DNA of 64,000 bases from Spirochaetia bacterium (GCA_965263295.1 OZ253665.1:1888001-1952000), one strand, 5' to 3'. Shown: positions 2,808 to 24,982, numbered from the stretch's first letter. The notes: a model not told the origin generated them from the letters alone. Made by a program: numbers and translations.

Positions 2808-4175
2808 CTATCCGTTTTGCAAAAGCTGCAATTGTAATTGGGCTTCCAGTTCTTCGTCGGCAATTGAGGTGACGCGGCCTCCTTCATATTGCTGGTCGAC
2901 CCAGGCCTTGATGGCTAGTACCACGGGCGAAGTTTTGCCACATTGGGACTGCGGTAGCTCCGGGTGCTGCTGTTGTAACCAGTGCGCTATGCCGCTGGCC
3001 CCGGAAGTGTTGGAAATCGCCACGGAAACGGGCCGGTTCAACAGGTTCTCCGTATCGAAAATATTGTAAATTTCTTCATTCTTGAGAATGCCATCGGCAT
3101 GGATTCCCGCGCGGGTAATATTGAAGTCGGAGCCGACAAAAGGTGTACGCGCTGGTATTCTATAATTCAGTTCTCGTTCATAGTACTGAGCAATTTCGGT
3201 GATAACCGCAATGTCCATGCCATCTCCAGTGCCACGCAACTGGGCATATTCGAAGACCATGGCCTCCAGAGGACAATTGCCGGTACGCTCGCCAATGCCC
3301 AACAGCGAACAATTGACCGCTGACGCGCCGTAGAGCCAGGCCGCACTGGCGTTGGAGACGGCGCGATAGAAGTCGTTGTGGCCGTGCCATTCCAGCTGTG
3401 CGCTAGGGAATCCGGCATGATGCAGCAGGCCGTAAATGATGCCCCCGACACTGCGCGGAATGGCCACACCCGGAGTGCTGACGCCGTAGCCCATGGTGTC
3501 ACAAACCCTTAGTTTAACAGGGGTCCCCGCCTGTTCTGAGAGCTTGCGCAATTCAATGGCAAAGGGAATGACAAAGCCGTAGATATCGGCGCGGGTAATA
3601 TCTTCAAAGTGACATCGCACTTTGATGCCTGTTTCAAGAGCCGCTTTAACTATGCTGAGGTAATGCTCCATTGCCTGACCGCGCTTCATCTTCAATTTTT
3701 GGAAAATATGGTAATCAGAGCACGAAACCAAAATTCCGGTCTCTTGAATCTGCATATCTTTGACCAACTGGAAGTCCTTTTGAGAAGCGCGGATCCAACT
3801 GGTGATTTGTGGGAATTCATAGCCCAAGGCCCGACAGGCTTCGACAGCGGCGCGGTCTCGCTCGCTGTAAAGAAAAAACTCCGACTGGCGGATCAGCCCC
3901 TTGGGGCCACCCAAGCGGTGCAGGAATTTATACAGCTGGACAATTTGTTCCACTGTATACGGTGTGCGAGACTGCTGACCGTCGCGGAAGGTGGTATCTG
4001 TAATCCAGATATCATCCGGCATGTGAATAGGGACCACACGGTGGTTGAAGGCAATGCGCGGGACTTCAGTATATGGAAAGTGCTCGCGGTACAATTGGGG
4101 CTCGTCGATATCCTGCAAGGCATATTCAAAATTTTTGGCTTCAAGCAGGTTACTTCGCTTAGTCAATTCTAGCAT
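2808..4175 (-). CDS. Re-citrate synthase-like DRE-TIM metallolyase (isopropylmalate/homocitrate synthase superfamily)
   Basis: DTTFRDGQQ, HGHND, GIGERTGN and AGIHADG motifs; no LeuA regulatory domain; directly upstream of aconitase. Confidence 0.8.
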   Translation of the reverse strand: MLELTKRSNLLEAKNFEYALQDIDEPQLYREHFPYTEVPRIAFNHRVVPIHMPDDIWITDTTFRDGQQSRTPYTVEQIVQLYKFLHRLGGPKGLIRQSEFFLYSERDRAAVEACRALGYEFPQITSWIRASQKDFQLVKDMQIQETGILVSCSDYHIFQKLKMKRGQAMEHYLSIVKAALETGIKVRCHFEDITRADIYGFVIPFAIELRKLSEQAGTPVKLRVCDTMGYGVSTPGVAIPRSVGGIIYGLLHHAGFPSAQLEWHGHNDFYRAVSNASAAWLYGASAVNCSLLGIGERTGNCPLEAMVFEYAQLRGTGDGMDIAVITEIAQYYERELNYRIPARTPFVGSDFNITRAGIHADGILKNEEIYNIFDTENLLNRPVSVAISNTSGASGIAHWLQQQHPELPQSQCGKTSPVVLAIKAWVDQQYEGGRVTSIADEELEAQLQLQLLQNG

Positions 4176-4360
4176 TAGTAAGGCTCCTTTTAAGGCACTG
4201 AGACTGGCGGCTTCACTATATCCTTACAGGCCAGGCCAAGGGAAACTGGCCACGGGAAACAGACAAAGGGAGAAACAAAATTTCTTTACTACAAATTATC
4301 GGAGCGCATTAGACGACATAAAAGAAGAGCAAGTTTATTTTATACCTGTTGTCACATAGC

Positions 4361-4390
4361 CGTAAGCGGGGCCTTTAGGCCCCGCTTACG
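4361..4390. terminator. Hairpin downstream of ferritin
   Basis: CGTAAGCGGGGCCT-TT-AGGCCCCGCTTACG inverted repeat. Confidence 0.6.
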
Positions 4391-4411
4391 AGATTACAAA
4401 ATTTACGGGGT

Positions 4412-4930
4412 CTAGTCTCCTGACTCCGCTGAGCGTTCCAACAAGCGCTCATCAATAGCCAGCAGGGCGGCCACGTTGTCGCCGGCCATTTCCAAGCGAT
4501 CGACAATATCGTCCACAGAAGATTCTTCCTTGCGTTGCTCTGCCAAGAACCACTGCATGAACTCAAAAGTTCCAAAGTCTTTCTCTTCAAAAGCTTGCCC
4601 GACAATCGCATTGATGCGCCTGGTAATAACTTGCTCGTGTTCAAAAGCTTTCTGGAAGCATTCAAGCAGGCTGCCCGGCTGGACCTCAGGTTTTTGGACC
4701 GCTTCCACCAAGGCTTTGCCATGCTTCTCTACAATGTACTCAAAGACTCGCATACCGTGTTCATGCTCTTGGATGAATTGCTGGTGGAACCAGTGGGCTG
4801 CACCATGCCATTTCATTTCATGGCAAGACGCAGACAAGGCTAGATTAGTATAGGCCGAGTTCATTTCAAAGTTAAAATGCTCGTTTAAGCTCGCAAACAT
4901 TTCTTTGCTGACTAATGAGTTATGTCCCAT
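4412..4930 (-). CDS. ftnA: Non-heme ferritin
   Basis: Ferroxidase-type motifs (E..S.Y, EHEH, FEHEQ, FMQWFLAEQ.KEE); RBS GAGGAG. Confidence 0.88.
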   Translation of the reverse strand: MGHNSLVSKEMFASLNEHFNFEMNSAYTNLALSASCHEMKWHGAAHWFHQQFIQEHEHGMRVFEYIVEKHGKALVEAVQKPEVQPGSLLECFQKAFEHEQVITRRINAIVGQAFEEKDFGTFEFMQWFLAEQRKEESSVDDIVDRLEMAGDNVAALLAIDERLLERSAESGD

Positions 4931-5012
4931 AGATGTCTCCTCATTGATATTTTATAATATCAATATTATACACAAAACACACAACTAATACAAGTTCATC
5001 TAATATTTTTAT

Positions 5013-5052
5013 GCCCTGGGGATATAATTATATATAATTATATCCCCAGGGC
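5013..5052. repeat. Perfect 40-bp palindrome downstream of 5S rRNA
   Basis: GCCCTGGGGATATAATTATA|TATAATTATATCCCCAGGGC. Confidence 0.9.
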
Positions 5053-5078
5053 GACTCTGCCCTTAGAATACAAAAAAA

Positions 5079-5188
5079 GCCGGCAACGACCTACTCTCCC
5101 AGCTCTCGCTAGTACCATCGGCGCTGAAGAGCTTAACTACTGAGTTCGGAATGGTTTCAGGTGTTTCCTCTTCGCTATCGTCACCGGC
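5079..5188 (-). rRNA. rrf: 5S rRNA
   Basis: Reverse complement has CCATTCCGAACTCAGTAGTTAAGC and GATGGTACT...GAGAGTAGGTCGTTGCCGG; ends pair. Confidence 0.95.
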
Positions 5189-5240
5189 ATTATCATACAA
5201 AACTATAACGCTCAAATCACGCCAAGGATGGGCAATAATA

Positions 5241-8187
<2,947 letters not shown>

Positions 8188-8212
8188 TATTATTACTCAT
8201 CCTTCGCTTTGC

Positions 8213-8279
8213 TGTCAAAGAGCGCCCCCTCTCGCTGGAGGGTGAAGCGTAATTTAATGATCTCATCCTCAACTGTCAA
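8213..8279 (-). promoter_or_regulatory. Sigma70 promoter plus boxA antiterminator for the 23S-5S unit
   Basis: Minus strand TTGACA(8279-8274)-N17-TAAATT(8256-8251), then GCTCTTTGACA boxA-like motif (8223-8213). Confidence 0.8.
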
Positions 8280-8311
8280 GCTCATAGCAACACAAAATCT
8301 TAATTTTTTTC

Positions 8312-9547
8312 TCATCCTTGCTGCTGGCGCGACAAAATGCTGGGCACGCGATTCTGACGCAGGCGATAGGCGTCGGGCATCCGCGAGCCCAACAGCGGAC
8401 GCAGATACATGCGGAAAGCATCGGTTATATTAGTGCCGCTCTCGCTAATGAACTCATCAGGCATGGTCCTGGTCTTGCCCGCCACATCCCGCAGGTTGCT
8501 GAGCTGATAGTCGACGGAATAGAAACCCGTGCGATGGATGGTCACAGAACCGTCGGCATCTCCCCACATGGCATACTGAACCGCCTTTTCGCCCACCTCG
8601 CGCGCCTCGCGCTGGTCGACGTCCGAGACACAGCCCACAAAACAGCGCTGCATGTAGCCAAAGGTATCCGCGCGCACGCGCTTGTAAGGTAGCTTGGCCT
8701 TGATTTCGCCACACAAGAGGTCGGCCAAGGCCCCTGTGCCCGAAAGCTGCACGTTGCCGTGGGCATCGCGCTCCACCTCCTTGACCAGATTGAGCGCCAT
8801 AGGCACACCATTGGAATCGTGAATGCCTTCAGAGAGGGCGATCACACAACGCCCATATTTTTCCATGGTCGCCTTCACATCCGCGAGGAACGAAGCGATC
8901 GAAAAAGAGCGCTCCGGCATGTAGATCAGGTGCGGACCGTCATCGGGAAACTTTTTGCCCAAGGCGGAGGCGGCCGTCAGGAATCCCGCGTGGCGTCCCA
9001 TCACCACCCCTAGATAGACGCCGGGCAGCGCCCAGTTGTCCAGATTCGCCCCCATGAAGGCTTGCGCGACAAAGCGCGCCGCCGAAGGGAATCCGGGACA
9101 ATGATCGTTGACCATCAGATCGTTGTCAATCGTCTTGGGGATGTGGATACAGCGCAGGGGATACTTCGCTGCCTGGGCCTGCTCAGAAACGATGCGCACG
9201 GTATCCGAACTATCGTTGCCACCAATATAAAAGAAATAGCCAATCTGGTGCGCCTGAAGGACGCGAAAAATCTCCTGGCAGTATTTCAGGTCGGGCTTGT
9301 CGCGAATGGAGCCCAAGGCCGAAGAAGGAGTCTGCGCCACCATCTCCAGATTGTGGGTGGTCTCCTGAGTCAGGTCAAAAAATTCCTCATCGACGATGCC
9401 CCGCACGCCGTGAAACGCGCCATATACCTTTTCGACGGCGCTGAATTTACGCGATTCCAAAACCACGCCAACCATGGATTGGTTAATTACGGCGGTGGGG
9501 CCACCGCCCTGGGCCACCAGAATTTTGCCACTGTTCAAATTGTCCAT
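8312..9547 (-). CDS. pfkA: 6-phosphofructokinase (PfkA family, possibly PPi-dependent)
   Basis: GGGPTAVIN, IGGNDS, PKTIDND, MGRHAG motifs; start at ATG 9547 after AAGGAGG. Confidence 0.88.
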   Translation of the reverse strand: MDNLNSGKILVAQGGGPTAVINQSMVGVVLESRKFSAVEKVYGAFHGVRGIVDEEFFDLTQETTHNLEMVAQTPSSALGSIRDKPDLKYCQEIFRVLQAHQIGYFFYIGGNDSSDTVRIVSEQAQAAKYPLRCIHIPKTIDNDLMVNDHCPGFPSAARFVAQAFMGANLDNWALPGVYLGVVMGRHAGFLTAASALGKKFPDDGPHLIYMPERSFSIASFLADVKATMEKYGRCVIALSEGIHDSNGVPMALNLVKEVERDAHGNVQLSGTGALADLLCGEIKAKLPYKRVRADTFGYMQRCFVGCVSDVDQREAREVGEKAVQYAMWGDADGSVTIHRTGFYSVDYQLSNLRDVAGKTRTMPDEFISESGTNITDAFRMYLRPLLGSRMPDAYRLRQNRVPSILSRQQQG

Positions 9548-10178
9548 ATGAAGACCTCCTTCATCCTCCGGCACAAAGAGCCCGTAATAGCCGCACATTC
9601 TTGTTTATTCCGGTTATTCACTGCCAGCTGCTCCCCGCAGCGCCCTTTGTCCCGTTTCTTTATTTAAATCTGCCAGTCTGCCGGCTAGCAAACTGAAGCC
9701 ACTAGCTCATAGCCTCGGTATCATAACCGCTTGCCGCCCACGCAGCAAGGCAAACCGAGGCAACACAGACTTTGAAGATTCCACGTCGGCGATGACAAAA
9801 ATTCTATTTCTTCCTGATTGACTCAAGCTGCTAAGCATTACAACAACACGCTGAGCCGGATTATCGCAGTCTGCATGAATGGATATTTTAAGCCGGTTAT
9901 AAATAGAAAATAATGAAAAATAACAATTTTTATTTAAAAAAATATTGATTAAAATATAGATTTTTAGTAAATTATACTTATCAGTGGTTAATACCACAAG
10001 CAAATTTCAAATGACAATTCAAAATGGTATTTCATCGAAAATCGAAACTCAAAATGCATTGCAAACAATGTGGAATAAATATCGTTGGTATTTTGCCTGC
10101 CCGGTTTTTGCGTCGGATTTTTGCCCTTTGGGATATCTACTTCGGGGATATCTATTTTGAATTTAAGGGGGCAAGCTT

Positions 10179-12005
10179 ATGTCGACCAAAAACATTTGGG
10201 GGAAAACAAGAAAGTTCAGCATATATATGCTGACTCTCCTGCTACTTGCAGGCTGTGATGACACTGCAAAACACAAAGGAATCCCCAAGAGTGTTTTTCA
10301 CATTAAACAAAAAGATATCGAAAGCCAGGCTTTTACTAATGCATCAGAGCAGTCGATAGTCTACATTGTCGACAAATTTGAGAAAGACGGCGAGCTTGTC
10401 TACGATAGCCATCAACCTGAAGATAAGCGCATCGTCAACCAAAAGATCTGGGATGGGTGCAAAATTGAGTGGGGCCTGCGCAAAAAAGGCACGTCAAAAA
10501 TATACACGTGTGACAAAGAGCAAGTTACAGAAGAGAATAAAGCCGAATTTACTCTGTCGAAGACAATGCCGTCAGGCTTCCCGGTAGAAGAACTGAACCT
10601 CCAAAAGATATCAGGCATAGAAATCAGCGCCCAATTGATTTTGCCTGATGGTACCTCAATTGTAAACGACAAAACTGATGAGAATTTGCTACCCGATGAA
10701 ATTGCTCAAAAACTAATTGGGGAAACTTTAAAGGCAGAAAGTAAAAAAGGTGATGATGTAGATAAAGGCCAAAAAAGCAAGACCCAAACTGAGACTTCTA
10801 GCAGTAAAGGGTCAGGGGTAGAAGCCACAGATAAAGGTGATGATAAAGGCCAAAAAGGACGGATGGGAACCACAGGAGAATCAAGCGCTACCTCCACTAC
10901 TACTGTGACTGAGGAAGGAGAGTCTGAAGTATTAGAGGAAGCCGAAACAGAAGGAACAGTAGCTAAGGAGATAACAACTACTATTACTACTACTGAAGTT
11001 GAATCTACTGAAACTGCTACTGTTCCTTCTGTTTCATCAAAGCTTGCTCAATATGAAAATACGTTGAAATCTAAATTCAAAGAAACTTTTAGCAAATATT
11101 ATGAAAAGGAAAACCAAGTCCTGTCCCTGGGCACAAAAGCGGAAGAACAGGGTGATGATGTCTTGTATGCCCTGTCTTTCGACAGCATTGATTCTTCACA
11201 AGTCAATAAATTTAAGCACTTGTTTTTGAAAACCATACTGTGGAAAAGCAAAGCCAATGGCATGTTTCAGAAAATCAAGAGTACGCAATCCAATTTTTAC
11301 ATCTCCCTGGGAAAGCAAGATCCTGAAAAACTTGTCCTGCGCGTGAAGGACATAGATAAAATAGACGGGTTAAAAAGCTTTTTCACGGATAAAACTTACC
11401 GCGTGGAAAAAATAGACAACAAAGTCACTTTTACATCGACCAAAGGAGGGAAAAAATTGTCGGCATTCATTGCCCCGCAATCGCGCCCGGTAACGGTAAA
11501 TGATCTGCAGGGCAAGAGATTCTGTAACAATGATTTAATCAAAGGAACTGAAGAAGATGCAAATGATAAAATTCATCGCTTTCTCAAATTTCCACCGAAT
11601 ATGAACCGTAAAGAAGGAAAGGATGCGCAATGGCAGTATGAGCGGACTCATAATAATAAAAATTATAAAGTGCATCAGGATATGGAATGGAAATTTAATC
11701 CAGAGAATGGCCTGTTAGAAATCATTACCATGAAAGCTTTTATATTCATTAAGATTAATAATCAAAATGATAAGAGGCATCGCATTAAAGAAGATGAAAA
11801 CTTGAACTGGATGAAAAATTATGAACAGTTTGAACTGAGTGGGTATCTCAAATGGAGCGAAACGGAAAAAGGCAAATTAGTTTTAGAGGCCGAGGGCCCA
11901 TTGCCAAAAACTTGTCAAGATCCAATGAGCTTCTGGTTCTATAAAGACTTTGGTACACATGAATTCAAAGATAAAGTTATCTTGGAGGAATCAAAATCAA
12001 AATAG
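10179..12005 (+). CDS. Putative lipoprotein with Thr/Glu/Ser low-complexity linker
   Basis: 608 aa; signal ending LLLLAGC; T/E-rich central segment. Confidence 0.75.
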   Translation: MSTKNIWGKTRKFSIYMLTLLLLAGCDDTAKHKGIPKSVFHIKQKDIESQAFTNASEQSIVYIVDKFEKDGELVYDSHQPEDKRIVNQKIWDGCKIEWGLRKKGTSKIYTCDKEQVTEENKAEFTLSKTMPSGFPVEELNLQKISGIEISAQLILPDGTSIVNDKTDENLLPDEIAQKLIGETLKAESKKGDDVDKGQKSKTQTETSSSKGSGVEATDKGDDKGQKGRMGTTGESSATSTTTVTEEGESEVLEEAETEGTVAKEITTTITTTEVESTETATVPSVSSKLAQYENTLKSKFKETFSKYYEKENQVLSLGTKAEEQGDDVLYALSFDSIDSSQVNKFKHLFLKTILWKSKANGMFQKIKSTQSNFYISLGKQDPEKLVLRVKDIDKIDGLKSFFTDKTYRVEKIDNKVTFTSTKGGKKLSAFIAPQSRPVTVNDLQGKRFCNNDLIKGTEEDANDKIHRFLKFPPNMNRKEGKDAQWQYERTHNNKNYKVHQDMEWKFNPENGLLEIITMKAFIFIKINNQNDKRHRIKEDENLNWMKNYEQFELSGYLKWSETEKGKLVLEAEGPLPKTCQDPMSFWFYKDFGTHEFKDKVILEESKSK

Positions 12006-12073
12006 AGAAGAGTGGCCAAAACTCTCTGATAGTTCTTGCTTGATCTTTGGGGCTGTGCCTGTGGCACGCCTCA

Positions 12074-13340
12074 AAGTCCCTGGCCCGCTAACCACGAAAA
12101 ACACCAAAAAAGTACGAAACCACACGAAAAATTCTAAAAAACCGCCCCTCCCGCCTCGACGCCCCCCACAGCTCCCGTTCTCCATCCAGCCCCTATTTTA
12201 ACTTTTCCCTGTCACCCGCAGCTCCCCGTCGTCGTCCCCGCGGCCCCCCTACCTAACTTTCGTGACCTTTCGCTGTCTTCGTGCACTTTCGTGGTTCCCC
12301 TTTCGTGGTCCCCACCAAGTAACCACGAAAAACACCAAAAAAGTACGAAACCACACGAAAAATTCTAAAAAACCGCCCCTCCCGCCTGAACGCCTCCCGC
12401 AGCTCCCGTCACCCATCCAGCCTCATTTTCTACCTTCTCCCTGTCACCCAAAGCTCCCCATGTGCCACCCGCGGCCCCCCCGTCTAAATTTCGTGCCTTT
12501 TCGCTGTCTTCGTGTAATTTCGTGGTTCCCCTTTCGCTGTCTTCGTGCCCTTTCGTGGTTCCTTTCGTGCCCTTCGTGGTTCCCTTCAAAGTTCCCCGGT
12601 CACCCGCAGCTCCCCGTCCTGCCCCCCGCGGCTCCCCCGTCTAGATTTCGTGACCTTTCGCTGTCTTCGTGTAATTTCGTGGTTCCTTTCGTGGTCCCCC
12701 CCCCAAGTAACCACGAAAAACACAAAAAAAGTACGAACAACACCAAAAATCCTAAAAAACCGCCCCTGCTACCTGGACGCCCCTCCTGCCTCCCGTCACC
12801 CTGTTTTCCTGTTTTCCTGTTTTCCTGACTCCCCGGTCACCCCCAGCCCCCGTCATCCATCCAGCCCCTATTTTAACTTTTCCCTGTCACCCGCAGCTCC
12901 CCATGTGCCACCCGCGGCCCCCCTGTCGCCATTTCGTGACCTTTCGCCACCTTTCGTGTAATTTCGTGGTCCCCCTTTCGTGGTCCCCCCAAGTAACCAC
13001 GAAAAACACCAAAAAAGTACGAACAACACCAAAAATTCTAAAACACCGCCCCTGCTACCTGAACGCCCCCCTCCTGCCTCCCGTCATCCATCCAGCCCCT
13101 ATTTTAACTTTTTCCCCCTGCCTCCCTGCCCCCAAAAGGAAAATTTCCGGCTCCCCTATCTAACTTTCGTGCCCTTTCGCCGTCTTCGTGCCTTTTCGTG
13201 GTCCCCCCCACGGCTCCCCTATCTAAATTTCGTGCCTTTTCGCTGTCTTCGTGTAATTTCGTGGTCCCCCTTTCGTGGTCCCCCCCCAAGTAACCACGAA
13301 AAACACAAAAAAAGTACGAACAACACGAAAATTCTAAAAA
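12074..13340 (+). repeat. Array of CACGAA/TTCGTG inverted-arm elements (5 A arms)
   Basis: TAACCACGAAAAACAC.AAAAAAGTACGAA.. arms at 12089, 12320, 12708, 12994, 13291 alternating with TTTCGTG..TTTCG..TTCGTG..TTTCGTGGT arms. Confidence 0.9.
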
Positions 13341-13742
13341 TTAAATAACCAGTCGTGTAATTGATACCTTTGGATATGTTCCAAAATTCACAAGTAATCC
13401 AAGTTTCATGCCGGTTGCTTTTAAATAATTAATCAACTGTGTCTTATGTTCGGGTGCAACAGCCTTGACAGCCTTGAGCTCAACAATAATTTTCCCATAG
13501 CAGATTAAATCCGCCTTATAAGTTTGTTGCAACGATTCACCTTTGTATGCCAAGTTTAGTTTCTTTTGCGAAACAAAGGGAATCCCATTTTTAGTAAGTT
13601 CTTTTTCAAGACATTCCTGATATACAGCTTCCAAAAAACCACACCCCATTTCGCGATACACTGCAAAAATCGCGCCCTGAATTTTATAACATTTGTCTTT
13701 AAAAAGTATTTTTTCTTGTCTCTCTTGCTTGTTGTCGTTCAC
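13341..13742 (-). CDS. GxxExxY protein (PD-(D/E)XK nuclease superfamily)
   Basis: GCGFLEAVYQECL, ADLICYGKIIVELKA, QLINYLKAT..GLLVNFG; GTG start at 13742 chosen after GGAG. Confidence 0.9.
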   Translation of the reverse strand: MNDNKQERQEKILFKDKCYKIQGAIFAVYREMGCGFLEAVYQECLEKELTKNGIPFVSQKKLNLAYKGESLQQTYKADLICYGKIIVELKAVKAVAPEHKTQLINYLKATGMKLGLLVNFGTYPKVSITRLVI

Positions 13743-13754
13743 CTTCTGCTCCAC

Positions 13755-16390
13755 AATCACAAAAGGCAAAAAAACACCGCAAAATACAAAAAATTCTTCC
13801 CCAGCCCCCTTTTTTACCTTTTCCCTGTCACCCACAGCTCCCCGTCCTGCCACCCACGGCTCCCCTGCCTAAATTTCGTGCCCTTTCGCCACTTTTCGTG
13901 CCTTTTCGTGGTTCCCCTTTCGTAGTCCCCCACCAAGTAACCACGAAAAACACCAAAAAAGTACGAAACCACACGAAAAATTCTAAAAAACCGCCCCTGC
14001 TACCTGGACGCCCCTCCTGCCTCCCGTCATCCATCCAGCCCCTATTTTCCTGCCTCCTTGCCACTAAAAGGAAAATTTCCGGCTCCCCTATCTAAATTTC
14101 GTGCCCTTTCGCTGTATTTCGTGCCCTTCGTGGTTCCACCCACAGCTCCCCGTCCTGCCCCCCACGGCTCCCCAGCCTAAATTTCGTGCCTTTTCGCTGT
14201 CTTCGTGTAATTTCGTGGTTCCCCTTTCGTGGTTACTATTTCGTGACCTTTCGCTGTCTTCGTGCCTTTTCGTGGTTCCCCTTTCGTGGTCCCCCCCCCA
14301 AGTAACCACGAAAAACACCAAAAAAATACGAACAACACCAAAAATTCTAAAAAACCGCCCCTGCTGCCTAAACGCCCCCCGCGCCTCCCGTCACCCTGTT
14401 TTCCTGTTTTCCTGTTTTCCTGACTCCCCGGTCACCCCCAGCCCCCGTCATCCATCCAGCCCCTTTTCTAACTTTTTACCTGCCTCCTTGCCACTCAAAG
14501 GAAAATTTCCGGCTCCCCAGCCTAAATTTCGTGACATTTCGCCACCTTTCGTGCATTTTCGTGGTTCCCTTTAAAGTTCCCCGGTCACCCCCAGCCCCCG
14601 TCATCCATCCAGCCCCTATTTTAACTTTTCCCTGTCACCCGCAGCTCCCCATCCTGCCACCCACGGCTCCCCTGCCTAAATTTCGTGACATTTCGCCACC
14701 TTTCGTGTAATTTCGTGGTCCCCCTTTCGTGGTCCCCCCCAAGTAACCACGAAAAACACTAAAAAGTACGAACAACACCAAAAATCCTAAAACACCGCCC
14801 CTGCTGCCTGAACGCCCCTCCTGCCTCCCGTCATCCATCCAGCCCCTTTTTTAACTTTTCCCCTGTCACCCGCAGCTCCCCGTCCTGCCCCCCGCGGCTC
14901 CCCTGCCGCCATTTCGTGATTTTTCGCTGTCTTCGTGCCTTTTCGTGGTTCCCCTTTCGCTGTCTTCGTGCCCTTTCGTGGTTCCCCTTTCGTGGTTCCC
15001 CCAAGTAACCACGAAAAACACCAAAAAAGTACGAACAACACCAAAAATTCTAAAACACCGCCCCTGCTACCTGAACGCCCCCTCCCGCCTCCCGTCACCC
15101 TGTTTTCCTGTTTTCCTGTTTTCCTGACTCCCCGGTCACCCCCAGCCCCCGTCATCCATCCAGCCCCTATTTTAACTTTTTCCCTGTCACCCACAGCTCC
15201 CCATGTGCCACCCGCGGCCCCCCTGTCGCCATTTCGTGACCTTTCGCCACCTTTCGTGTAATTTCGTGGTCCCCCTTTCGCTGTCTTCGTGTAATTTCGT
15301 GGTCCCCCTTTCGTGGTCCCCCCAAGTAACCACGAAAAACACCCAAAAAGTACGAACAACACCAAAAATTCTAAAAAACCGCCCCTCCCGCCTGGACGCC
15401 CCTCCTGCCTCCCGTCACCCTGTTTTCCTGTTTTCCTGTTTTCCTGACTCCCCGGTCACCCCCAGCCCCCGTCATCCATCCAGCCCCTTTTCTAACTTTT
15501 CCCCTGTCACCCAAAGCTCCCCATGTGCCACCCGCGGCTCCCCAGCCTAACTTTCGTGACCTTTCGCTGTCTTCGTGTAATTTCGTGGTCCCCACAGCCC
15601 CCGTCATCCATCCAGCCCCTATTTTAACTTTTCCCCTGTCACCCGCAGCTCCCCATCCTGCCACCCACGGCTCCCCTATCTAGATTTCGTGACCTTTCGT
15701 TATTTTTCGTGCTTTTCGTGGTTCCCCTTTCGCCGTCTTCGTGCCTTTTCGTGGTCCCCGCGGCCCCCCCGTCTAAATTTCGTGCCTTTTCGCTGTCTTC
15801 GTGCCCTTTCGTGGTTCCTTTCGTGCCCTTCGTGGTTCCCTTTAAAGTTCCCCGGCCACCCACAGCTCCCCATCGTCGTCCCCGCGGCCCCCCTACCTAA
15901 CTTTCGTGACTTTTCGCCCTCTTTCGTGCCCTTCGTGGTTCCACCCGCAGCTCCCCGTCGTCGTCCCCGCGGCTCCCCCGTCTAAATTTCGTGCCTTTTC
16001 GCTGTCTTCGTGTAATTTCGTGGTCCCCCTTTCGCGGTCCCCCCCAAGTAACCACGAAAAACACCAAAAAAAGAACGAACAACACCAAAAATTCTAAAAC
16101 ACCGCCCCTGCTACCTGAACGCCCCTCCTGCCTCCCGTCACCCTGTTTTCCTGTTTTCCTGTTTTCCTGTTTTCCTGACTCCCCGGTCACCCCCAGCCCC
16201 CGTCATCCATCCAGCCCCTTTTTTACCTTTTCCCCTGCCACCCACAGCTCCCCCGTCTAGATTTCGTGACCTTTCGTTATTTTTCGTGCTTTTTCGTGGT
16301 TACTATTTCGTGACCTTTCGTTATTTTTCGTGCCCTTTCGTGGTTACTATTTTGTGCCTTTTCGTAGATTTTCGTGTAATTTCGTGGTTT
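13755..16390 (+). repeat. Array of inverted-arm elements (6 A arms) with (CCTGTTTT)3-4 and C-rich modules
   Basis: A arms at 13938, 14303, 14744, 15006, 15327, 16049; many B arms. Confidence 0.9.
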
Positions 16391-16397
16391 GGTTCAA

Positions 16398-16480: not shown

Positions 16481-18562
16481 TTACTGAGCAACCGTCAGAG
16501 AAATATTATGGGTTACACTAGATCCCAGATCAACTGTGACCTTCGAATTTGCTACATCAACAGCCAGCTTAGTTTTATCAAAAGCGCCATCAACTTCGCC
16601 TTGTTCTGACCCACTAAGATTTGTATAAGCAGACAAAGCCTTAACTGCGTCCAAAATGGCCTTTTTGGTATCATCATCATCGGCAATTGTTGTGCCCTGA
16701 GCAAGCTCTAGGGTCGCTATTGCTTTAACAAATGTATTTAAGTCAAAAAGATTGCCAGTGCCACCGCCAGCAGCAACCGTCAGAGAAATATTATGGGTTA
16801 CACTAGATCCCAGATCAACTGTGACCTTCGAATTTGCTACATCAACAGCCAGCTTAGTTTTATCAAAAGCGCCATCAACTTCGCCTTGTTCTGACCCACT
16901 AAGATTTGTATAAGCAGACAAAGCCTTAACTGCGTCCAAAATGGCCTTTTTGGTATCATCATCATCGGCAATTGTTGTGCCCTGAGCAAGCTCTAGGGTC
17001 GCTATTGCTTTAACAAATGTATTTAAGTCAAAAAGATTGCCAGTGCCACCGCCAGCAGCAACCGTCAGAGAAATATTATGGGTTACACTAGATCCCAGAT
17101 CAACTGTGACCTTCGAATTTGCTACATCAACAGCCAGCTTAGTTTTATCAAAAGCGCCATCAACTTCGCCTTGTTCTGACCCACTAAGATTTGTATAAGC
17201 AGACAAAGCCTTAACTGCGTCCAAAATGGCCTTTTTGGTATCATCATCATCGGCAATTGTTGTGCCCTTAGCAAGCTCTAGGGTCGCTATTGCTTTAACA
17301 AATGTATTTAAGTCAAAAAGATTGCCAGTGCCACCGCCAGCAGCAACCGTCAGAGAAATATTATGGGTTACACTAGATCCCAGATCAACTGTGACCTTCG
17401 AATTTGCTACATCAACAGCCAGCTTAGTTTTATCAAAAGCGCCATCAACTTCGCCTTGTTCTGACCCACTAAGATTTGTATAAGCAGACAAAGCCTTAAC
17501 TGCGTCCAAAATGGCCTTTTTGGTATCATCATCATCGGCAATTGTTGTGCCCTGAGCAAGCTCTAGGGTCGCTATTGCTTTAACAAATGTATTTAAGTCA
17601 AAAAGATTGCCAGTGCCACCGCCAGCAGCAACCGTCAGAGAAATATTATGGGTTACACTAGATCCCAGATCAACTGTGACCTTCGAATTTGCTACATCAA
17701 CAGCCAGCTTAGTTTTATCAAAAGCGCCATCAACTTCGCCTTGTTCTGACCCACTAAGATTTGTATAAGCAGACAAAGCCTTAACTGCGTCCAAAATGGC
17801 CTTTTTGGTATCATCATCATCGGCAATTGTTGTGCCCTTAGCAAGCTCTAGGGTCGCTATTGCTTTAACAAATGTATTTAAGTCAAAAAGATTGCCAGTG
17901 CCACCGCCAGCAGCAACCGTCAGCTCAATTTTCTTGGATGGAGTCGTAAGTACAACACTGGCAGGAGTTTGCCCTGAAGCTGGAGTAACCTTCAGATTAT
18001 CTTTGGCAAAATATCCATCAAAAGTTGATTTTTCGGTGCCAAGCTTGTCATAGAACAGAACCTTTTTAGCTTTCGCTTTAGCTGCCTCCAAAATGGCAGT
18101 TTTGATATCATCAGTATCGGCAATTTTTGTGTCAGAAGGAAGCTCTAGGCCATCTGCCACAATCTTGTCAAGCAATTCGCGAGCCTCAGGCTGGAGCAAA
18201 TAAAAAGTTCCTTCACCTTTCTTTACTTTAGTATTTTCATCTGCAGCTACTTTGCCGTAAAAGACTGTTAGACCAATGGGCATTGCAGCAGGGTCATTAA
18301 AAGTTAATCCTCCTCCATTTTTATCTGAATTATAGAATAAAGGGGATGAAAGTTCTCCGTCTGTACCAAATAGAGCATTGTAAGTGGCGGTTTCTTTATC
18401 ACCCACCACTGCACCCACATAAGTTTTATCAGTATCATTTGGTAAAACCGTTGGATTCGTAAAGCTGTTGGCGGCAGAGCTTCCGCCGTCATCGCTGTCG
18501 TCGCAGGCGAAGAACGCCAGCCCGACCAGCAACATAGGAATTAAATAGAATATTTTCCGCAT
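16481..18562 (-). CDS. Surface lipoprotein with five 95-aa tandem repeats
   Basis: MRKIFYLIPMLLVGLAFFAC signal after AAGGAG; 693 aa. Confidence 0.85.
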   Translation of the reverse strand: MRKIFYLIPMLLVGLAFFACDDSDDGGSSAANSFTNPTVLPNDTDKTYVGAVVGDKETATYNALFGTDGELSSPLFYNSDKNGGGLTFNDPAAMPIGLTVFYGKVAADENTKVKKGEGTFYLLQPEARELLDKIVADGLELPSDTKIADTDDIKTAILEAAKAKAKKVLFYDKLGTEKSTFDGYFAKDNLKVTPASGQTPASVVLTTPSKKIELTVAAGGGTGNLFDLNTFVKAIATLELAKGTTIADDDDTKKAILDAVKALSAYTNLSGSEQGEVDGAFDKTKLAVDVANSKVTVDLGSSVTHNISLTVAAGGGTGNLFDLNTFVKAIATLELAQGTTIADDDDTKKAILDAVKALSAYTNLSGSEQGEVDGAFDKTKLAVDVANSKVTVDLGSSVTHNISLTVAAGGGTGNLFDLNTFVKAIATLELAKGTTIADDDDTKKAILDAVKALSAYTNLSGSEQGEVDGAFDKTKLAVDVANSKVTVDLGSSVTHNISLTVAAGGGTGNLFDLNTFVKAIATLELAQGTTIADDDDTKKAILDAVKALSAYTNLSGSEQGEVDGAFDKTKLAVDVANSKVTVDLGSSVTHNISLTVAAGGGTGNLFDLNTFVKAIATLELAQGTTIADDDDTKKAILDAVKALSAYTNLSGSEQGEVDGAFDKTKLAVDVANSKVTVDLGSSVTHNISLTVAQ
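16488..17912 (-). repeat. 5 x 285-bp near-identical intragenic repeats
   Basis: Unit starts at 16488, 16773, 17058, 17343, 17628; protein copies differ only at one K/Q site. Confidence 0.92.
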
Positions 18563-19141
18563 AAGAAAACTCCTTGAATGTATATTTTTACCCAAAATAC
18601 AAACTGGGCGCCCAAAAGTCAAGCCTGTATCGCGGTTTTGGCGCAAAAAAATCACTTTTTTCTCCTTTCGTGCCATTTCGCTGGCCAAGTAACCACGAAA
18701 AACACAAAAATTCTAAAACACCGCCCCTCCCTGCCACCCATGGATTACCTGCCTAAATTTCGTGACCTTTCGCTGTCTTCGTGCTTTTCGTGGTCACCTT
18801 TTCGCCACCTTTCGTGCAATTCGTGGTCCCCCTTCAAAGTTCCCCGGTCACCCGCAGCCTAAATTTCGTGACCTTTCGCTGTCTTCGTGCACTTTCGTGG
18901 TTACTATTTCGTGCCTTTTCGTAGATTTTCGTGTAATTTCGTGGTTCCCGTCATCCATCCAGCCCCTATTTTAACTTTTCCCTGTCACCCGCAGCTCCCC
19001 GTCGTCGTCCCCGCGGCCCCCCTACCTAACTTTCGTGATTTTTCGCTGTCTTCGTGTAATTTCGTGGTTACTATTTCGTGCCTTTTCGCTGTCTTCGTGC
19101 TTTTCGTGGTCCCTCTTTCGTGGTCCCTCTTTCGTGGTCCC

Positions 19142-19555
19142 CTAACCAGGTAGAAACTGATAAGCTGCGACAAGTGCGGCGATAGTCACGCCACTACAAC
19201 TGATCATGGCCGTCAGCGACCATCTCATAAAATTATTTATTTGCGCTTGCACCGACTCAAAACGCTTATCCACCTGCTCAAAACGCTTATCCACCTGCTC
19301 AAAACGCTTATCCACCTGCTCAAAACGCCTGTTCATCTGTTCCTGCACTTGCTCAAAGCGATCATTCATATCCTTTCTAAGCGTCAATATTTCACCCCGC
19401 AGATCTTGTTCAAGATGCGTTATGTGGTTCGTCTGTGCTTTAAGCACCAAAACAATGATCTCTTCGCTCTTTAGAGCCTCATTATTGGTTACTTTTTGCA
19501 TGGCTTTTTGGGCATTTTCGTCCAGCCATTGTTCAAAACCCGAATTGTCAAACAT
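19142..19555 (-). CDS. Membrane-anchored coiled-coil protein (DUF1640/CCDC90/Bdr-like), copy 1, 137 aa
   Basis: QVDKRFE heptads, C-terminal hydrophobic helix, GGAGG RBS. Confidence 0.8.
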   Translation of the reverse strand: MFDNSGFEQWLDENAQKAMQKVTNNEALKSEEIIVLVLKAQTNHITHLEQDLRGEILTLRKDMNDRFEQVQEQMNRRFEQVDKRFEQVDKRFEQVDKRFESVQAQINNFMRWSLTAMISCSGVTIAALVAAYQFLPG

Positions 19556-19576
19556 GAAAAAATACCTCCAAACCCA

Positions 19577-19605
19577 ATTCTAAATCTATCCAACATATTT
19601 TGCAA
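19577..19605 (-). promoter_or_regulatory. Cassette-internal sigma70 promoter, repeated before each array copy
   Basis: TTGCAA-N17-TAGAAT about 20 bp upstream of the ATG. Confidence 0.6.
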
Positions 19606-19790
19606 ACCAGATTTTGGTTCCCTCAGAATCCCTGGCCCCGTAACCACGAACAACACCAAAAATTCTAAAACACCGCCCCTCCCGCCTCGACGCCCCCCCC
19701 CTGCCACCCACAGCTCCCCGTCGTCGTCCCCGCGGCTCCCCCAGCCTAAATTTCGTGACCTTTCGCTGTCTTCGTGCTTTTCGTGGTCCC

Positions 19791-20249
19791 CTAACCAGGT
19801 AGAAACTGATAAGCTGCGACAAGTGCGGCGATAGTCACGCCACTACAACTGATCATGGCCGTCAGCGACCATCTCATAAAATTATTTATTTGCGCTTGCA
19901 CCGACTCAAAACGCTTATCCACCTGCTCTTGCGCCTGCTTAAAGCGCATATTCATTTGCTCTTGTGCGCACTCAAAACGCTTATCGACCTGCTCAAAGCG
20001 CTTATCCACCTGCTCAAAACGCCTGTTCATCTGTTCCTGCACTTGCTCAAAGCGATCATTCATATCCTTTCTAAGCGTCAATATTTCACCCCGCAGATCT
20101 TGTTCAAGATGCGTTATGTGGTTCGTCTGTGCTTTAAGCACCAAAACAATGATCTCTTCGCTCTTTAGAGCCTCATTATTGGTTACTTTTTGCATGGCTT
20201 TTTGAGCATTTTCGTCCAGCCATTGTTCAAAACCCGAATTGTCAAACAT
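19791..20249 (-). CDS. Coiled-coil cassette protein copy 2, 152 aa
   Basis: Same as copy 1 with a CAQEQMNMRFKQAQE insert. Confidence 0.8.
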   Translation of the reverse strand: MFDNSGFEQWLDENAQKAMQKVTNNEALKSEEIIVLVLKAQTNHITHLEQDLRGEILTLRKDMNDRFEQVQEQMNRRFEQVDKRFEQVDKRFECAQEQMNMRFKQAQEQVDKRFESVQAQINNFMRWSLTAMISCSGVTIAALVAAYQFLPG

Positions 20250-20741
20250 GAAAAATACCTCCAAACCCAATTCTAAATCTATCCAACATATTTTGCAAAC
20301 CAGATTTTGGTTCCCCCTCAGAATCCCTGGCCCCGTAACCACGAACAACACCAAAAATTCTAAAACACCGCCCCTCCCTGCCACCCATGGATTACCCGTC
20401 TAAATTTCGTGACCTTTCGCTGTCTTCGTGCTTTTCGTGGTCACCTTTTCGCCACCTTTCGTGCAATTCGTGGTCCCCCTTTAAAGTTCCCCGGTCACCC
20501 GCAGCCCCCCATCGTTTCACCCGCGGCTCCCCAGCCTAAATTTCGTGACCTTTCGCTGTCTTCGTGCACTTTCGTGGTCCCCCTTTAAAGTTCCCCGGTC
20601 ACCCGCAGCTCCCCATCGTTTCACCCGCGGCCCCCCTACCTAACTTTCGTGATTTTTCGCTGTCTTCGTGTAATTTCGTGGTTACTATTTCGTGCCTTTT
20701 CGCTGTCTTCGTGCTTTTCGTGGTCCCTCTTTCGTGGTCCC

Positions 20742-21197
20742 CTAACCAGGTAGAAACTGATAAGCTGCGACAAGTGCGGCGATAGTCACGCCACTACAAC
20801 TGATCATGGCCGTCAGCGACCATCTCATAAAACTATTTATTTGCGCTTGCACCGACTCAAAACGCTTATCCACCTGCTCAAAACGCTTATCCACCTGCTC
20901 AAAACGCTTGTCCACCTGCTCAAAACGCTTGTCCACCTGCTCAAAACGCCTGTTCATCTGTTCCTGCACTTGCTCAAAGCGCTTGTCGACTTGCTCAAAG
21001 CGATCATTCATATCCTTTCTAAGCGTCAATATTTCACCCCGCAGATCTTGTTCAAGATGCGTTATGTGGTTCGTCTGTGCTTTAAGCACCAAAACAATGA
21101 TTTCTTCGCTCTTTAGAGCCTCATTATTGGTTACTTTTTGCATGGCTTTTTGAGCATTTTCGTCCAGCCATTGTTCAAAACCCGAATTGTCAAACAT
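20742..21197 (-). CDS. Coiled-coil cassette protein copy 3, 151 aa
   Basis: Five QVDKRFE heptads. Confidence 0.8.
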   Translation of the reverse strand: MFDNSGFEQWLDENAQKAMQKVTNNEALKSEEIIVLVLKAQTNHITHLEQDLRGEILTLRKDMNDRFEQVDKRFEQVQEQMNRRFEQVDKRFEQVDKRFEQVDKRFEQVDKRFESVQAQINSFMRWSLTAMISCSGVTIAALVAAYQFLPG

Positions 21198-21468
21198 GAA
21201 AAAATACCTCCAAACCCAATTCTAAATCTATCCAACATATTTTGCAAACCAGATTTTGGTTCCCTCAGAATCCCTGGCCCCGTAACCACGAACAACACCA
21301 AAAATTCTAAAACACCGCCCCTCCCGCCTGAACGCCCCCCCTGCCACCCATGGATTACCCGTCTAAATTTCGTGACTTTTCGCTGTCTTCGTGCTTTTCG
21401 TGGTCCCCGCGGCTCCCCCTACCTAACTTTCGTGATTTTTCGCTGTCTTCGTGCCCTTTCGTGGTCCC

Positions 21469-21861
21469 CTAACCAGGTAGAAACTGATAAGCTGCGACAA
21501 GTGCGGCGATAGTCACGCCACTACAACTGATCATGGCCGTCAGCGACCATCTCATAAAATTATTTATTTGCGCTTGCACCGACTCAAAACGCTTATCCAC
21601 CTGCTCAAAACGCTTATCCACCTGCTCAAAACGCCTGTTCATCTGTTCCTGCACTTGCTCAAAGCGATCATTCATATCCTTTCTAAGCGTCAATATTTCA
21701 CCCCGCAGATCTTGTTCAAGATGCGTTATGTGGTTCGTCTGTGCTTTAAGCACCAAAACAATGATCTCTTCGCTCTTTAGAGCCTCATTATTGGTTACTT
21801 TTTGCATGGCTTTTTGAGCATTTTCGTCCAGCCATTGTTCAAAACCCGAATTGTCAAACAT
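21469..21861 (-). CDS. Coiled-coil cassette protein copy 4, 130 aa
   Basis: Two QVDKRFE heptads. Confidence 0.8.
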   Translation of the reverse strand: MFDNSGFEQWLDENAQKAMQKVTNNEALKSEEIIVLVLKAQTNHITHLEQDLRGEILTLRKDMNDRFEQVQEQMNRRFEQVDKRFEQVDKRFESVQAQINNFMRWSLTAMISCSGVTIAALVAAYQFLPG

Positions 21862-22086
21862 GAAAAATACCTCCAAACCCAATTCTAAATCTATCCAACA
21901 TATTTTGCAAACCAGATTTTGGTTCCCTCAGAATCCCTGGCCCCGTAACCACGAACAACACCAAAAATTCTAAAACACCGCCCCTCCCGCCTCGACGCCC
22001 CCCCTGCCACCCATGGATTACCTGCCTAAATTTCGTGCCTTTTCGTAGATTTTCGTGTAATTTCGTGGTCCCTCTTTCGTGGTCCC

Positions 22087-22545
22087 CTAACCAGGTAGAA
22101 ACTGATAAGCTGCGACAAGTGCGGCGATAGTCACGCCACTACAACTGATCATGGCCGTCAGCGACCATCTCATAAAATTATTTATTTGCGCTTGCACCGA
22201 CTCAAAACGCTTATCCACCTGCTCTTGCGCCTGCTTAAAGCGCATATTCATTTGCTCTTGTGCGCACTCAAAACGCTTATCGACCTGCTCAAAGCGCTTA
22301 TCCACCTGCTCAAAACGCCTGTTCATCTGTTCCTGCACTTGCTCAAAGCGATCATTCATATCCTTTCTAAGCGTCAATATTTCACCCCGCAGATCTTGTT
22401 CAAGATGCGTTATGTGGTTCGTCTGTGCTTTAAGCACCAAAACAATGATCTCTTCGCTCTTTAGAGCCTCATTATTGGTTACTTTTTGCATGGCTTTTTG
22501 GGCATTTTCGTCCAGCCATTGCTCAAAACCCGAATTGTCAAACAT
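22087..22545 (-). CDS. Coiled-coil cassette protein copy 5, 152 aa
   Basis: Same protein as copy 2. Confidence 0.8.
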   Translation of the reverse strand: MFDNSGFEQWLDENAQKAMQKVTNNEALKSEEIIVLVLKAQTNHITHLEQDLRGEILTLRKDMNDRFEQVQEQMNRRFEQVDKRFEQVDKRFECAQEQMNMRFKQAQEQVDKRFESVQAQINNFMRWSLTAMISCSGVTIAALVAAYQFLPG

Positions 22546-22903
22546 GAAAAATACCTCCAAACCCAATTCTAAATCTATCCAACATATTTTGCAAACCAGA
22601 TTTTGGTTCCCTCAGAATCCCTGGCCCCGTAACCACGAACAACACCAAAAATTCTAAAACACCGCCCCTCCCGCCTCGACGCCCCCACAGCTCCCGTTCT
22701 CCATCCAGCCCCTATTTTAACTTTTCCCTGTCACCCGCAGCTCCCCGTCGTCGTCCCCGCGACCCCCCAGCCTAACTTTCGTGACCTTTCGCTGTCTTCG
22801 TGCCCTTTCGTGGTTACTATTTCGTGACCTTTCGCTGTCTTCGTGCACTTTCGTGGTTACTATTTCGTGACTTTTCGCTGTCTTCGTGTAATTTCGTGGT
22901 CCC

Positions 22904-23359
22904 CTAACCAGGTAGAAACTGATAAGCTGCGACAAGTGCGGCGATAGTCACGCCACTACAACTGATCATGGCCGTCAGCGACCATCTCATAAAACTATTT
23001 ATTTGCGCTTGCACCGACTCAAAACGCTTATCCACCTGCTCAAAACGCTTATCCACCTGCTCAAAACGCTTGTCCACCTGCTCAAAACGCTTGTCCACCT
23101 GCTCAAAACGCCTGTTCATCTGTTCCTGCACTTGCTCAAAGCGCTTGTCGACTTGCTCAAAGCGATCATTCATATCCTTTCTAAGCGTCAATATTTCACC
23201 CCGCAGATCTTGTTCAAGATGCGTTATGTGGTTCGTCTGTGCTTTAAGCACCAAAACAATGATTTCTTCGCTCTTTAGAGCCTCATTATTGGTTACTTTT
23301 TGCATGGCTTTTTGAGCATTTTCGTCCAGCCATTGTTCAAAACCCGAATTGTCAAACAT
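22904..23359 (-). CDS. Coiled-coil cassette protein copy 6, 151 aa
   Basis: Same protein as copy 3. Confidence 0.8.
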   Translation of the reverse strand: MFDNSGFEQWLDENAQKAMQKVTNNEALKSEEIIVLVLKAQTNHITHLEQDLRGEILTLRKDMNDRFEQVDKRFEQVQEQMNRRFEQVDKRFEQVDKRFEQVDKRFEQVDKRFESVQAQINSFMRWSLTAMISCSGVTIAALVAAYQFLPG

Positions 23360-23699
23360 GAAAAAATACCTCCAAACCCAATTCTAAATCTATCCAACAT
23401 ATTTTGCAAACCAGATTTTGGTTCCCCCTCAGAGTCCCTGGCCAAGTAACCACGAACAACACCAAAAATTCTAAAACACCGCCCCTCCCGCCTCGACGCC
23501 CCCCCTGCCTCCCATGGATTACCCGTCTAAATTTCGTGACCTTTCGCTGTCTTCGTGCTTTTCGTGGTCACCTTTTCGCCACCTTTCGTGCCCTTCGTGG
23601 TCCCCGCGGCTCCCCCAGCCTAACTTTCGTGACTTTTCGCTGTCTTCGTGCCCTTTCGTGTTCGTGCCTTTTCGCTGTCTTCGTGCTTTTCGTGGTCCC

Positions 23700-24179
23700 C
23701 TAACCAGGTAGAAACTGATAAGCTGCGACAAGTGCGGCGATAGTCACGCCACTACAACTGATCATGGCCGTCAGCGACCATCTCATAAAATTATTTATTT
23801 GCGCTTGCACCGACTCAAAACGCTTATCCACCTGCTCTTGCGCCTGCTTAAAGCGCATATTCATTTGCTCTTGTGCGCACTCAAAACGCTTATCGACCTG
23901 CTCAAAGCGCTTGTCCACCTGCTCAAAACGCCTGTTCATCTGTTCCTGCACTTGCTCAAAGCGCTTGTCGACTTGCTCAAAGCGATCATTCATATCCTTT
24001 CTAAGCGTCAATATTTCACCCCGCAGATCTTGTTCAAGATGCGTTATGTGGTTCGTCTGTGCTTTAAGCACCAAAACAATGATCTCTTCGCTCTTTAGAG
24101 CCTCATTATTGGTTACTTTTTGCATGGCTTTTTGAGCATTTTCGTCCAGCCATTGCTCAAAACCCGAATTGTCAAACAT
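23700..24179 (-). CDS. Coiled-coil cassette protein copy 7, 159 aa
   Basis: Hybrid of the copy-3 and copy-2 repeat patterns. Confidence 0.8.
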   Translation of the reverse strand: MFDNSGFEQWLDENAQKAMQKVTNNEALKSEEIIVLVLKAQTNHITHLEQDLRGEILTLRKDMNDRFEQVDKRFEQVQEQMNRRFEQVDKRFEQVDKRFECAQEQMNMRFKQAQEQVDKRFESVQAQINNFMRWSLTAMISCSGVTIAALVAAYQFLPG

Positions 24180-24523
24180 GAAAAAATACCTCCAAACCCA
24201 ATTCTAAATATATCCAACATATTTTGCAAACCAGATTTTGGTTCCCTCAGAATCCCTGGCCCCGTAACCACGAACAACACCAAAAATTCTAAAACACCGC
24301 CCCTCCCTGCCACCCATGGATTACCCGTCTAAATTTCGTGACCTTTCGCTGTCTTCGTGCACTTTCGTGGTCCCCCTTCAAAGTTCCCCGGTCACCCGCA
24401 GCCTAAATTTCGTGACCTTTCGCTGTCTTCGTGCACTTTCGTGGTCCCCGCGGCTCCCCAGCCTAACTTTCGTGACCTTTCGTAGACTTTCGTGTAATTT
24501 CGTGGTCCCTCTTTCGTGGTCCC

Positions 24524-24982
24524 CTAACCAGGTAGAAACTGATAAGCTGCGACAAGTGCGGCGATAGTCACGCCACTACAACTGATCATGGCCGTCAGCG
24601 ACCATCTCATAAAATTATTTATTTGCGCTTGCACCGACTCAAAACGCTTATCCACCTGCTCTTGCGCCTGCTTAAAGCGCATATTCATTTGCTCTTGTGC
24701 GCACTCAAAACGCTTATCGACCTGCTCAAAGCGCTTGTCCACCTGCTCAAAACGCCTGTTCATCTGTTCCTGCACTTGCTCAAAGCGATCATTCATATCC
24801 TTTCTAAGCGTCAATATTTCACCCCGCAGATCTTGTTCAAGATGCGTTATGTGGTTCGTCTGTGCTTTAAGCACCAAAACAATGATCTCTTCGCTCTTTA
24901 GAGCCTCATTATTGGTTACTTTTTGCATGGCTTTTTGGGCATTTTCGTCCAGCCATTGTTCAAAACCCGAATTGTCAAACAT
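24524..24982 (-). CDS. Coiled-coil cassette protein copy 8, 152 aa
   Basis: Same protein as copy 2. Confidence 0.8.
   Translation of the reverse strand: MFDNSGFEQWLDENAQKAMQKVTNNEALKSEEIIVLVLKAQTNHITHLEQDLRGEILTLRKDMNDRFEQVQEQMNRRFEQVDKRFEQVDKRFECAQEQMNMRFKQAQEQVDKRFESVQAQINNFMRWSLTAMISCSGVTIAALVAAYQFLPG

Follow-up and report, generated by a model that had tools for sequence, protein, structure and literature searches.

The locus considered here raises the question of what a small nuclease of the GxxExxY family has to do with the inverted DNA arms that enclose its gene and recur around it. The gene lies in positions 12,074 to 16,390 of a 64,000-nucleotide stretch of a Spirochaetia bacterium genome (GCA_965263295.1 OZ253665.1:1888001-1952000; here called the window), within a 4.3-kb array of two arm types, A and B, each a short series of regularly spaced boxes. 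We consider it probable that GxxExxY recognizes these boxes and cuts nearby, and that host repair then yields mosaics, tandem arrays, and gene duplications. The parts of this reading differ in strength. Predicted box recognition is well supported by co-variation between protein and box sequence, while cutting near the arms and a causal role in their spread are inferred.

A GxxExxY gene inside an array of box arms

The gene occupies positions 13341 to 13742 on the minus strand (GTG start at 13742, stop codon at 13341 to 13343), encodes 133 amino acids, and is present as one intact copy in the genome of the window, hereafter G000 (its congeners are G001, G002, and G003). Matches to FlaA and Borrelia_P83 mark the host as a spirochaete. 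The product matched PF13366 (146.5 bits; E value, 5.6e-43) and TIGR04256 (148.8 bits; E value, 7.7e-44), both above the curated cut-offs. The catalytic residues D78, E88, and K90 are present, and across 55 aligned sequences D78, K90, Q102, and Y106 were invariant and E88 nearly so; the QxxxY arrangement is what we take to be a mark of RecB-type nucleases. A predicted structure (pLDDT, 91.8) had as its best Foldseek match the Cas4/RecB-like protein SSO0001 (PDB 4ic1; E value, 1.1e-4; TM, 0.55). VIA-align placed several restriction-like folds in a tie at Z 7 to 8, and the subfamily is therefore not settled. Searching the PDB by sequence returned a single weak match (E value, 1.7). The catalytic core resembles that of Cas4/RecB-like nucleases, but GxxExxY has only 133 amino acids, with no CRISPR context at the locus, and a separate DNA-binding domain is absent. 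The available part of PMC3424549 enters the function of the PDDEXK_3/GxxExxY family as "Unknown" and describes multiple transfers.

Arms were counted as strict matches in a regex scan of the A and B box patterns. Positions 12074 to 16390 contain 11 A and 21 B arms, and none arose in 300 order-1 Markov simulations of the array region. A first-pass annotation, made from the sequence by a model, had put the recurrence of the arms at about 28; this holds for the window as a whole (27 plus-strand AACCACGAA starts) but not for the array. Its descriptions of the individual arms were accurate. The A arm at 13291 to 13336 (plus strand), which is the gene's 3' arm and matches the sequence quoted for it, has four CACG-like boxes spaced 9/11/9 and is separated from the stop codon by 4 nt, while the B arm at 13229 to 13264 (plus strand) was recovered by the scan with the reported 10/9/10 spacing. 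Genome-wide, 120 of 121 B arms are spaced 10/9/10, 10/10/10, 10/9/9, or 10/10/9. Within an arm the boxes run in direct order, so that pairing is confined to B with A, and the B-spacer-A junction at 13222 to 13340 is predicted to form a long hairpin (z, −3.5 on the plus strand and −5.9 on the minus strand).

In each array unit an A arm is followed by C-rich filler of modular make-up, then by at least one B arm, additional boxes, and a short spacer. The left part of the array (12074 to 13340, plus strand) holds four A-filler-B units and the A arm abutting the gene's stop codon, and the right part (13798 to 16392, plus strand) holds six A arms (13939, 14304, 14745, 15007, 15328, and 16050), 14 B arms, and modular C-rich filler. 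All 11 units differ from one another, and each is a patchwork that tiles into exact matches, averaging ∼23 nt, to elements elsewhere. The length of the array comes from the assembly, and no single other record covers all 4.3 kb, as might be expected of an assembly artefact. Such an artefact is nevertheless highly improbable, given the diversity of the units, a longest exact repeat inside the array of 98 nt, similar arrays in other genomes, and a 562-nt contig spanning arm end, gene, and filler (13313 to 13874) that is letter-identical in runs X2 and X3, which represent two samples from a single study. Contig joints across the array were considered as strain variants and set aside; other genomic copies map to these joints, which are therefore unreadable as such.

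At the 5' end, the reading of the first codons as a decayed arm was upheld. This arm (13710 to 13742, minus strand) lies within the first 11 codons and has lost all three boxes, whereas six homologues colinear over it retain intact CACGAA boxes and share 20 to 22 of 30 nt with the window. A GGAG ribosome-binding site, read from the sequence at 13749 to 13752 (minus strand), lies in the spacer separating this arm from a second decayed arm of A type (∼13754 to 13797, plus strand) directly upstream of it. The decayed junction has a weaker predicted fold (−26.3 versus −42 kcal/mol). Selective decay of the 5' arm was considered and rejected: its identity to the homologues is close to that of the coding body (66 to 76%), and thus the loss of all boxes may be due to chance.

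Co-occurrence of arms and gene, and the probable role of residue 22

If the arms belong with the gene, they should accompany it elsewhere, a check that the first-pass annotation had suggested, and the comparisons bear this out. Among the best 80 of 303 homologues found, which come from many phyla and are 62 to 81% identical to the window protein, 58 had arms on both sides within 120 nt, compared with 54 of 4,000 random windows; when orientation was fixed for a stricter test, the counts were 26 of 80 loci and 14 of 4,000 windows. In a survey of 201 genomes of the class (counts read off tables), at least 15 arm matches were reached by 9 of the 47 genomes with PF13366 and by none of the 154 without it (Fisher P = 1e-6, ignoring kinship). 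At a threshold of at least 10 matches, the counts were 11 of 47 and 4 of 154. Among the congeners, G001 (20 matches) and G002 (11 matches) carry the gene, and G003, with no matches, lacks it.

In the homologues, the cassettes are compact, their 5' arm overlaps the start codon, and the operon junctions at which they are found vary. Downstream genes were present at 68 of the 80 loci, and of the 67 that were scanned (one was left out), 42 encode type I or type III restriction-modification subunits by our own count. Together with its CACGAA arms, the GxxExxY cassette is thus transferred from phylum to phylum, for the most part inside type I/III restriction-modification operons, and has reached this spirochaete lineage.

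Box type and protein phylogeny covary, the outcome that the first-pass annotation had proposed looking for. On a tree of 121 proteins, box type changed 11 times, compared with a mean of 23 and a minimum of 20 for shuffled assignments. Within the close clade, residue 22 is Arg at all seven CACGGA loci, which fall at four places on the tree (branch support left aside). At the 68 CACGAA loci of this clade, it is Gln in 66 and His or Asn in 2, and never Arg. Pairing of Gln with A and of Arg with G is the usual base-reading code. The protein would, very probably, read the boxes directly, with residue 22 as the predicted contact to the fifth base. A residue behind the difference between CACGAA and CGCGAA boxes was also sought; the top-ranking columns may mark just one part of the tree, and for this reason no residue is claimed. 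One GxxExxY subclade (L006, L032 to L034, L039, L041, and L046) lacks box arms, and several of its members have a different upstream inverted motif.

Spread of the arms and the breakpoints of duplicated genes

The G000 genome contains 181 strict arm matches (60 A and 121 B) in 67 regions that total 21.9 kb, or 0.9% of the chromosome. The elements sit between called open reading frames (ORFs), although five reach the end of an ORF and a prophage-like gene is truncated by one of them. The four-box A arm occurs 46 times in G000 and is absent from G001, G002, G003, and G157, and its expansion is therefore lineage specific. In 53 of the 67 regions the leading strand is the G-rich one, and once regions were grouped this held for 23 of 32 (P = 0.02). 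Flanking genes showed no clear preference in orientation, with the four classes represented 17, 17, 17, and 16 times across the 67 regions.

How the copies spread was approached through their ends, which were mapped for 59 regions once a region devoid of boxes and seven copies internal to arrays had been removed. Elements start at an A box in 29 cases and at a B box in 30, and finish at B in 43 and at A in 16. The A...B arrangement is the commonest unit, with 72 of 118 mapped ends starting at an A box or finishing at a B box. These figures, together with the compact homologous cassettes at varied operon junctions, are what might be expected of a genuine transposase whose element has terminal inverted repeats, accompanied by non-autonomous copies resembling miniature inverted-repeat transposable elements (MITEs). 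However, there are no fixed termini. The distance from an end to the outer box varies between 0 and 119 nt, and most ends have a box within ∼40 nt. No target-site duplication rose above the shuffled expectation among the 67 regions, in a test that the fuzzy boundaries weaken: flank k-mers of 5, 6, 7, and 8 nt were shared in 21, 9, 3, and 1 regions, compared with 20.8, 7.0, 2.2, and 1.1 for shuffled pairs. The gene is single copy and its 5' arms are decayed, and we know of no strand-transfer chemistry for a 133-amino-acid PD-(D/E)XK domain. We regard a transposase of this kind as unlikely, and the autonomous element with MITE-like copies that had been proposed at first was not sustained. For empty-site comparison, the three congeners, ∼70 to 75% identical and rearranged, are too diverged.

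Flanks common to another element were found at 53 of 134 sides, compared with 0 to 2 for random intergenic sites. Outside the coiled-coil gene array described below, 34 pairs of elements share a flank class, but only one pair shares both flanks (hand count), which indicates that duplications of neighboring genes end inside elements. A 2.8-kb segment (9510 to 12305, plus strand), comprising a 608-amino-acid lipoprotein-like gene (10179 to 12005) and the first array unit, has a 99.75% identical copy at G000 1976778 to 1979570; homology stops just past the first B arm, and the other copy has a single unit. Genes for DUF8196-like and PKD-domain proteins also recur bracketed by elements. Excluding the coiled-coil array, a paralogue of at least 70% identity was found for 24 of 94 element neighbors and for 36 of 1,647 other ORFs. 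Some duplicate ends lie outside elements, among them the one at the other side of the 2.8-kb segment and those of certain paralogues. Where the second array (30415 to 31840, plus strand) truncates the prophage-like gene, the junction is a short microhomology with filler. The 67 regions are either gene-less or gene-flanking, and their arms fall at the breakpoints where surface-protein genes and other multicopy genes were duplicated. The copies are mosaics like bacterial interspersed mosaic elements (BIMEs), tandemly amplified and acting as recombination breakpoints.

Other gene-bearing genomes of the class have tandem arrays at arms, with unrelated fillers, and tandem genes. At L164, the 5' end of the GxxExxY gene is itself repeated in a tandem array at arms. 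At L054 (3870 to 4560), an arm lies in frame close to the start of a type III methylase gene. The 5' 130 nt of this methylase gene are duplicated on each side of the GxxExxY gene, which is itself fused in frame through the arm, with the crossover inside the short arm. Another pair of arms is found in frame toward the end of the methylase gene. Three further loci are recorded here as observations. At L167 (G084; 2828 to 11305), three of the four type III methylase genes that lie in tandem have the in-frame arm, and the other has none. Arms separate tandem paralogues of an unknown protein of 234 to 281 amino acids at L166 (G185; 477 to 9306). At L163 (G157; 800 to 2750), B arms have grown to long runs of the 9-bp box unit inside a tandem array.

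In the mechanism that we propose, GxxExxY would nick or cut near box arrays, the likeliest substrate being an array in single-stranded form or one extruded into a B-A hairpin, and would itself join no DNA. Host repair, by template switching, microhomology, or homologous recombination between arms, would then produce the mosaic tandem amplification, the dispersed copies, and the duplications of neighboring genes.

Several points weigh against this mechanism. Any dispersed repeat can serve as a RecA breakpoint, and runs resembling G-quadruplexes (G4), 43-fold enriched in filler, could drive instability without a nuclease. The strand bias of the elements could follow ordinary GC skew. No box could be assigned at 25 of the 121 homologue loci. 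A distant clade with Val or another hydrophobic residue at position 22 also has CACGAA arms (L016 and L164), and hence the residue-base code is limited to a clade. Among the gene-bearing genomes of the class, 38 of 47 have fewer than 15 arms of the type described here, many having other boxes or none; in most of them such arms are therefore few or absent. In G003, where arms and gene are both missing, the coiled-coil and DUF8196-like families are nonetheless present in multiple copies.

These points bear on a passive form of spread, in which the protein binds the boxes, for example for self-repression or cassette guarding, and the arms move by RecA, by G4-prone slippage, or by hitch-hiking on amplifying families. 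It would account for the multicopy cargo families of arm-less G003, for the 76 G4-like motifs in the 21.9 kb of elements (3.5 versus 0.08 per kb), for the one junction that is plain microhomology, and for the operator-like overlap of the homologues' 5' arm with the start codon. It sits less well with the restriction of high arm counts to gene-bearing genomes (0 of 154 genomes without the gene), with the appearance, in other lineages, of arrays with unrelated fillers at arms of this kind, with the retention of the catalytic residues, and with the crossover of the L054 methylase fusion within a short arm. Passive spread is, in our judgment, a good deal less probable than cutting by GxxExxY, though it is the most serious of the alternatives.

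The arms might also be spread by another enzyme, such as a DUF8196-like coiled-coil nuclease or an unseen transposase. The DUF8196-like coiled-coil and nuclease family is multicopy in all four genus members searched (3 to 13 matches), and all six matches in G000 adjoin an element. As partner of the arms it was rejected: G003 has nine matches and no arms, and G001 and G002 have copies without arms. No match to PF01797 (HUH Y1 transposase, including REP-associated tyrosine transposases, or RAYTs, where REP denotes repetitive extragenic palindromic sequences) was found in G000, which is 92.6% complete. No small GIY-YIG gene was found there either, the lone GIY-YIG match lying in a 687-amino-acid frame elsewhere, and two tyrosine recombinases are far from elements. 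No transposase was found among the 85 of 102 element-adjacent genes that were scanned (five further proteins were scanned separately), with no whole-genome DDE search made. The earlier suggestion of a non-HUH, non-DDE enzyme stands within that range, and another enzyme as the agent of spread is very unlikely. One of the DUF8196-like genes lies, together with the two elements beside it, in between genes for an ABC transporter and HlyD; the family site is at G000 683002 to 683631, with five others.

Taking GxxExxY to be the agent of cutting, we offer a broader conjecture, held only tentatively. The GxxExxY proteins may be widespread compact sequence-specific nucleases with a code linking residue 22 to a box base. 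In this host-associated-looking spirochaete, their cuts at arms may duplicate, disperse, and recombine surface-protein genes, and box loss over the gene start may have released expression and driven the expansion.

Relation to known systems and other features of the window

The closest parallel is offered by the Ssn nucleases and their NTS/SRM repeats, whose activity has been shown (Chenal et al. 2025, PMC11893778). In the available text of that paper, a small single-domain nuclease gene is flanked by cognate inverted repeats, the repeats reach hundreds of copies and cluster beside membrane-protein genes, and nuclease and repeat covary. The GxxExxY system likewise has a cognate repeat on both sides of the gene across phyla (58 of 80 homologues) and high repeat counts that go with the gene (9 of 47 versus 0 of 154 genomes). 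As described there, however, Ssn is a GIY-YIG protein with a hairpin repeat of 20 to 50 nt, whereas the present protein belongs to PF13366, with a PD-(D/E)XK domain and arms of three to four boxes at 9- to 11-bp spacing. An A arm here pairs only with the opposite arm B, and activity is predicted.

REPtron/BIME and TIRtron systems, so far as the accessible portions of PMC3333891 and PMC3733652 describe them, are alike in having one gene per genome bordered by its own repeats, inverted pairs, modular linkers, mosaic tandem arrays, local amplification, and capture of neighboring genes. Inverted pairs with modular linkers in intergenic mosaic tandem arrays were indeed found here. A short self-palindrome with a terminal tetranucleotide tag was not seen, as judged from the sequence with no tag search. 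The enzymes of those systems are HUH Y1 transposases, which cut and rejoin via phosphotyrosine (PMC3333891, PMC3733652), and none is present in G000. MITEs and insertion sequences share the inverted arms around gene or filler but differ in their fixed ends and target duplications, neither of which was found here, and no DDE enzyme was seen beside the arms. The system works like Ssn-NTS and REPtron-BIME and lies outside both by enzyme fold and repeat structure.

No description of GxxExxY with flanking arms was found in the literature, in a search that covered little subscription literature and no supplements; the Ssn gene-motif tables could bear on novelty. The available parts of 10.1101/2021.01.26.428298 and PMC3424549 do not mention repeats. 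The partnership is apparently unpublished, and the description of the system as new holds to that extent, with close analogues already published (Ssn-NTS and RAYT-REP/BIME). What this locus newly contributes is the genome-wide spread of arms and the shuffling of genes. GxxExxY function becomes directly assayable with a cognate DNA target and a residue-base code that can be tested. If the reading is true, nucleases paired with dispersed repeats of their own would be known in three folds, this one joining HUH and GIY-YIG, and the pairing bears on the origin and spread of such repeats. G000 is the extreme case, in both the share of its chromosome taken up by elements and their position at breakpoints of surface-protein genes. 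A site-specific nuclease of 133 amino acids could also be a tool.

Elsewhere in the window, eight tandem coiled-coil genes on the minus strand have an element between each (18660 to 25137, coordinates on the plus strand), and a ninth copy near 42000 has an element on either side (41713 to 42575, plus strand). A 735-amino-acid, repeat-rich lipoprotein-like gene (16481 to 18688, minus strand) is bracketed by elements and has a 3' flank common to two other element-bracketed genes. Dispersed elements lie at 35788 to 36190 (plus strand) and, in the opposite orientation beside a tRNA gene, at 48994 to 49261 (minus strand). An Rfam scan of the window found 23S, 5S, and one tRNA only; the 23S and 5S rRNA genes lie at 5078 to 8186 (minus strand). 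The prophage-like remnant at 26061 to 30438, which we take from its translations to be Mu-like, has 3.5 kb that recur at 95.9% identity at G000 726107 to 729585, where its last gene is intact. Near-perfect internal repeats of 285 and 288 nt occur in two lipoprotein-like genes (16487 to 17926 and 32514 to 33677). Ten-base tandem repeats that differ in length (42729 to 42778 and 49638 to 49787) lie upstream of two paralogous lipoprotein-like genes (42806 to 44359 and 49815 to 51257), and phase variation of these genes is possible.

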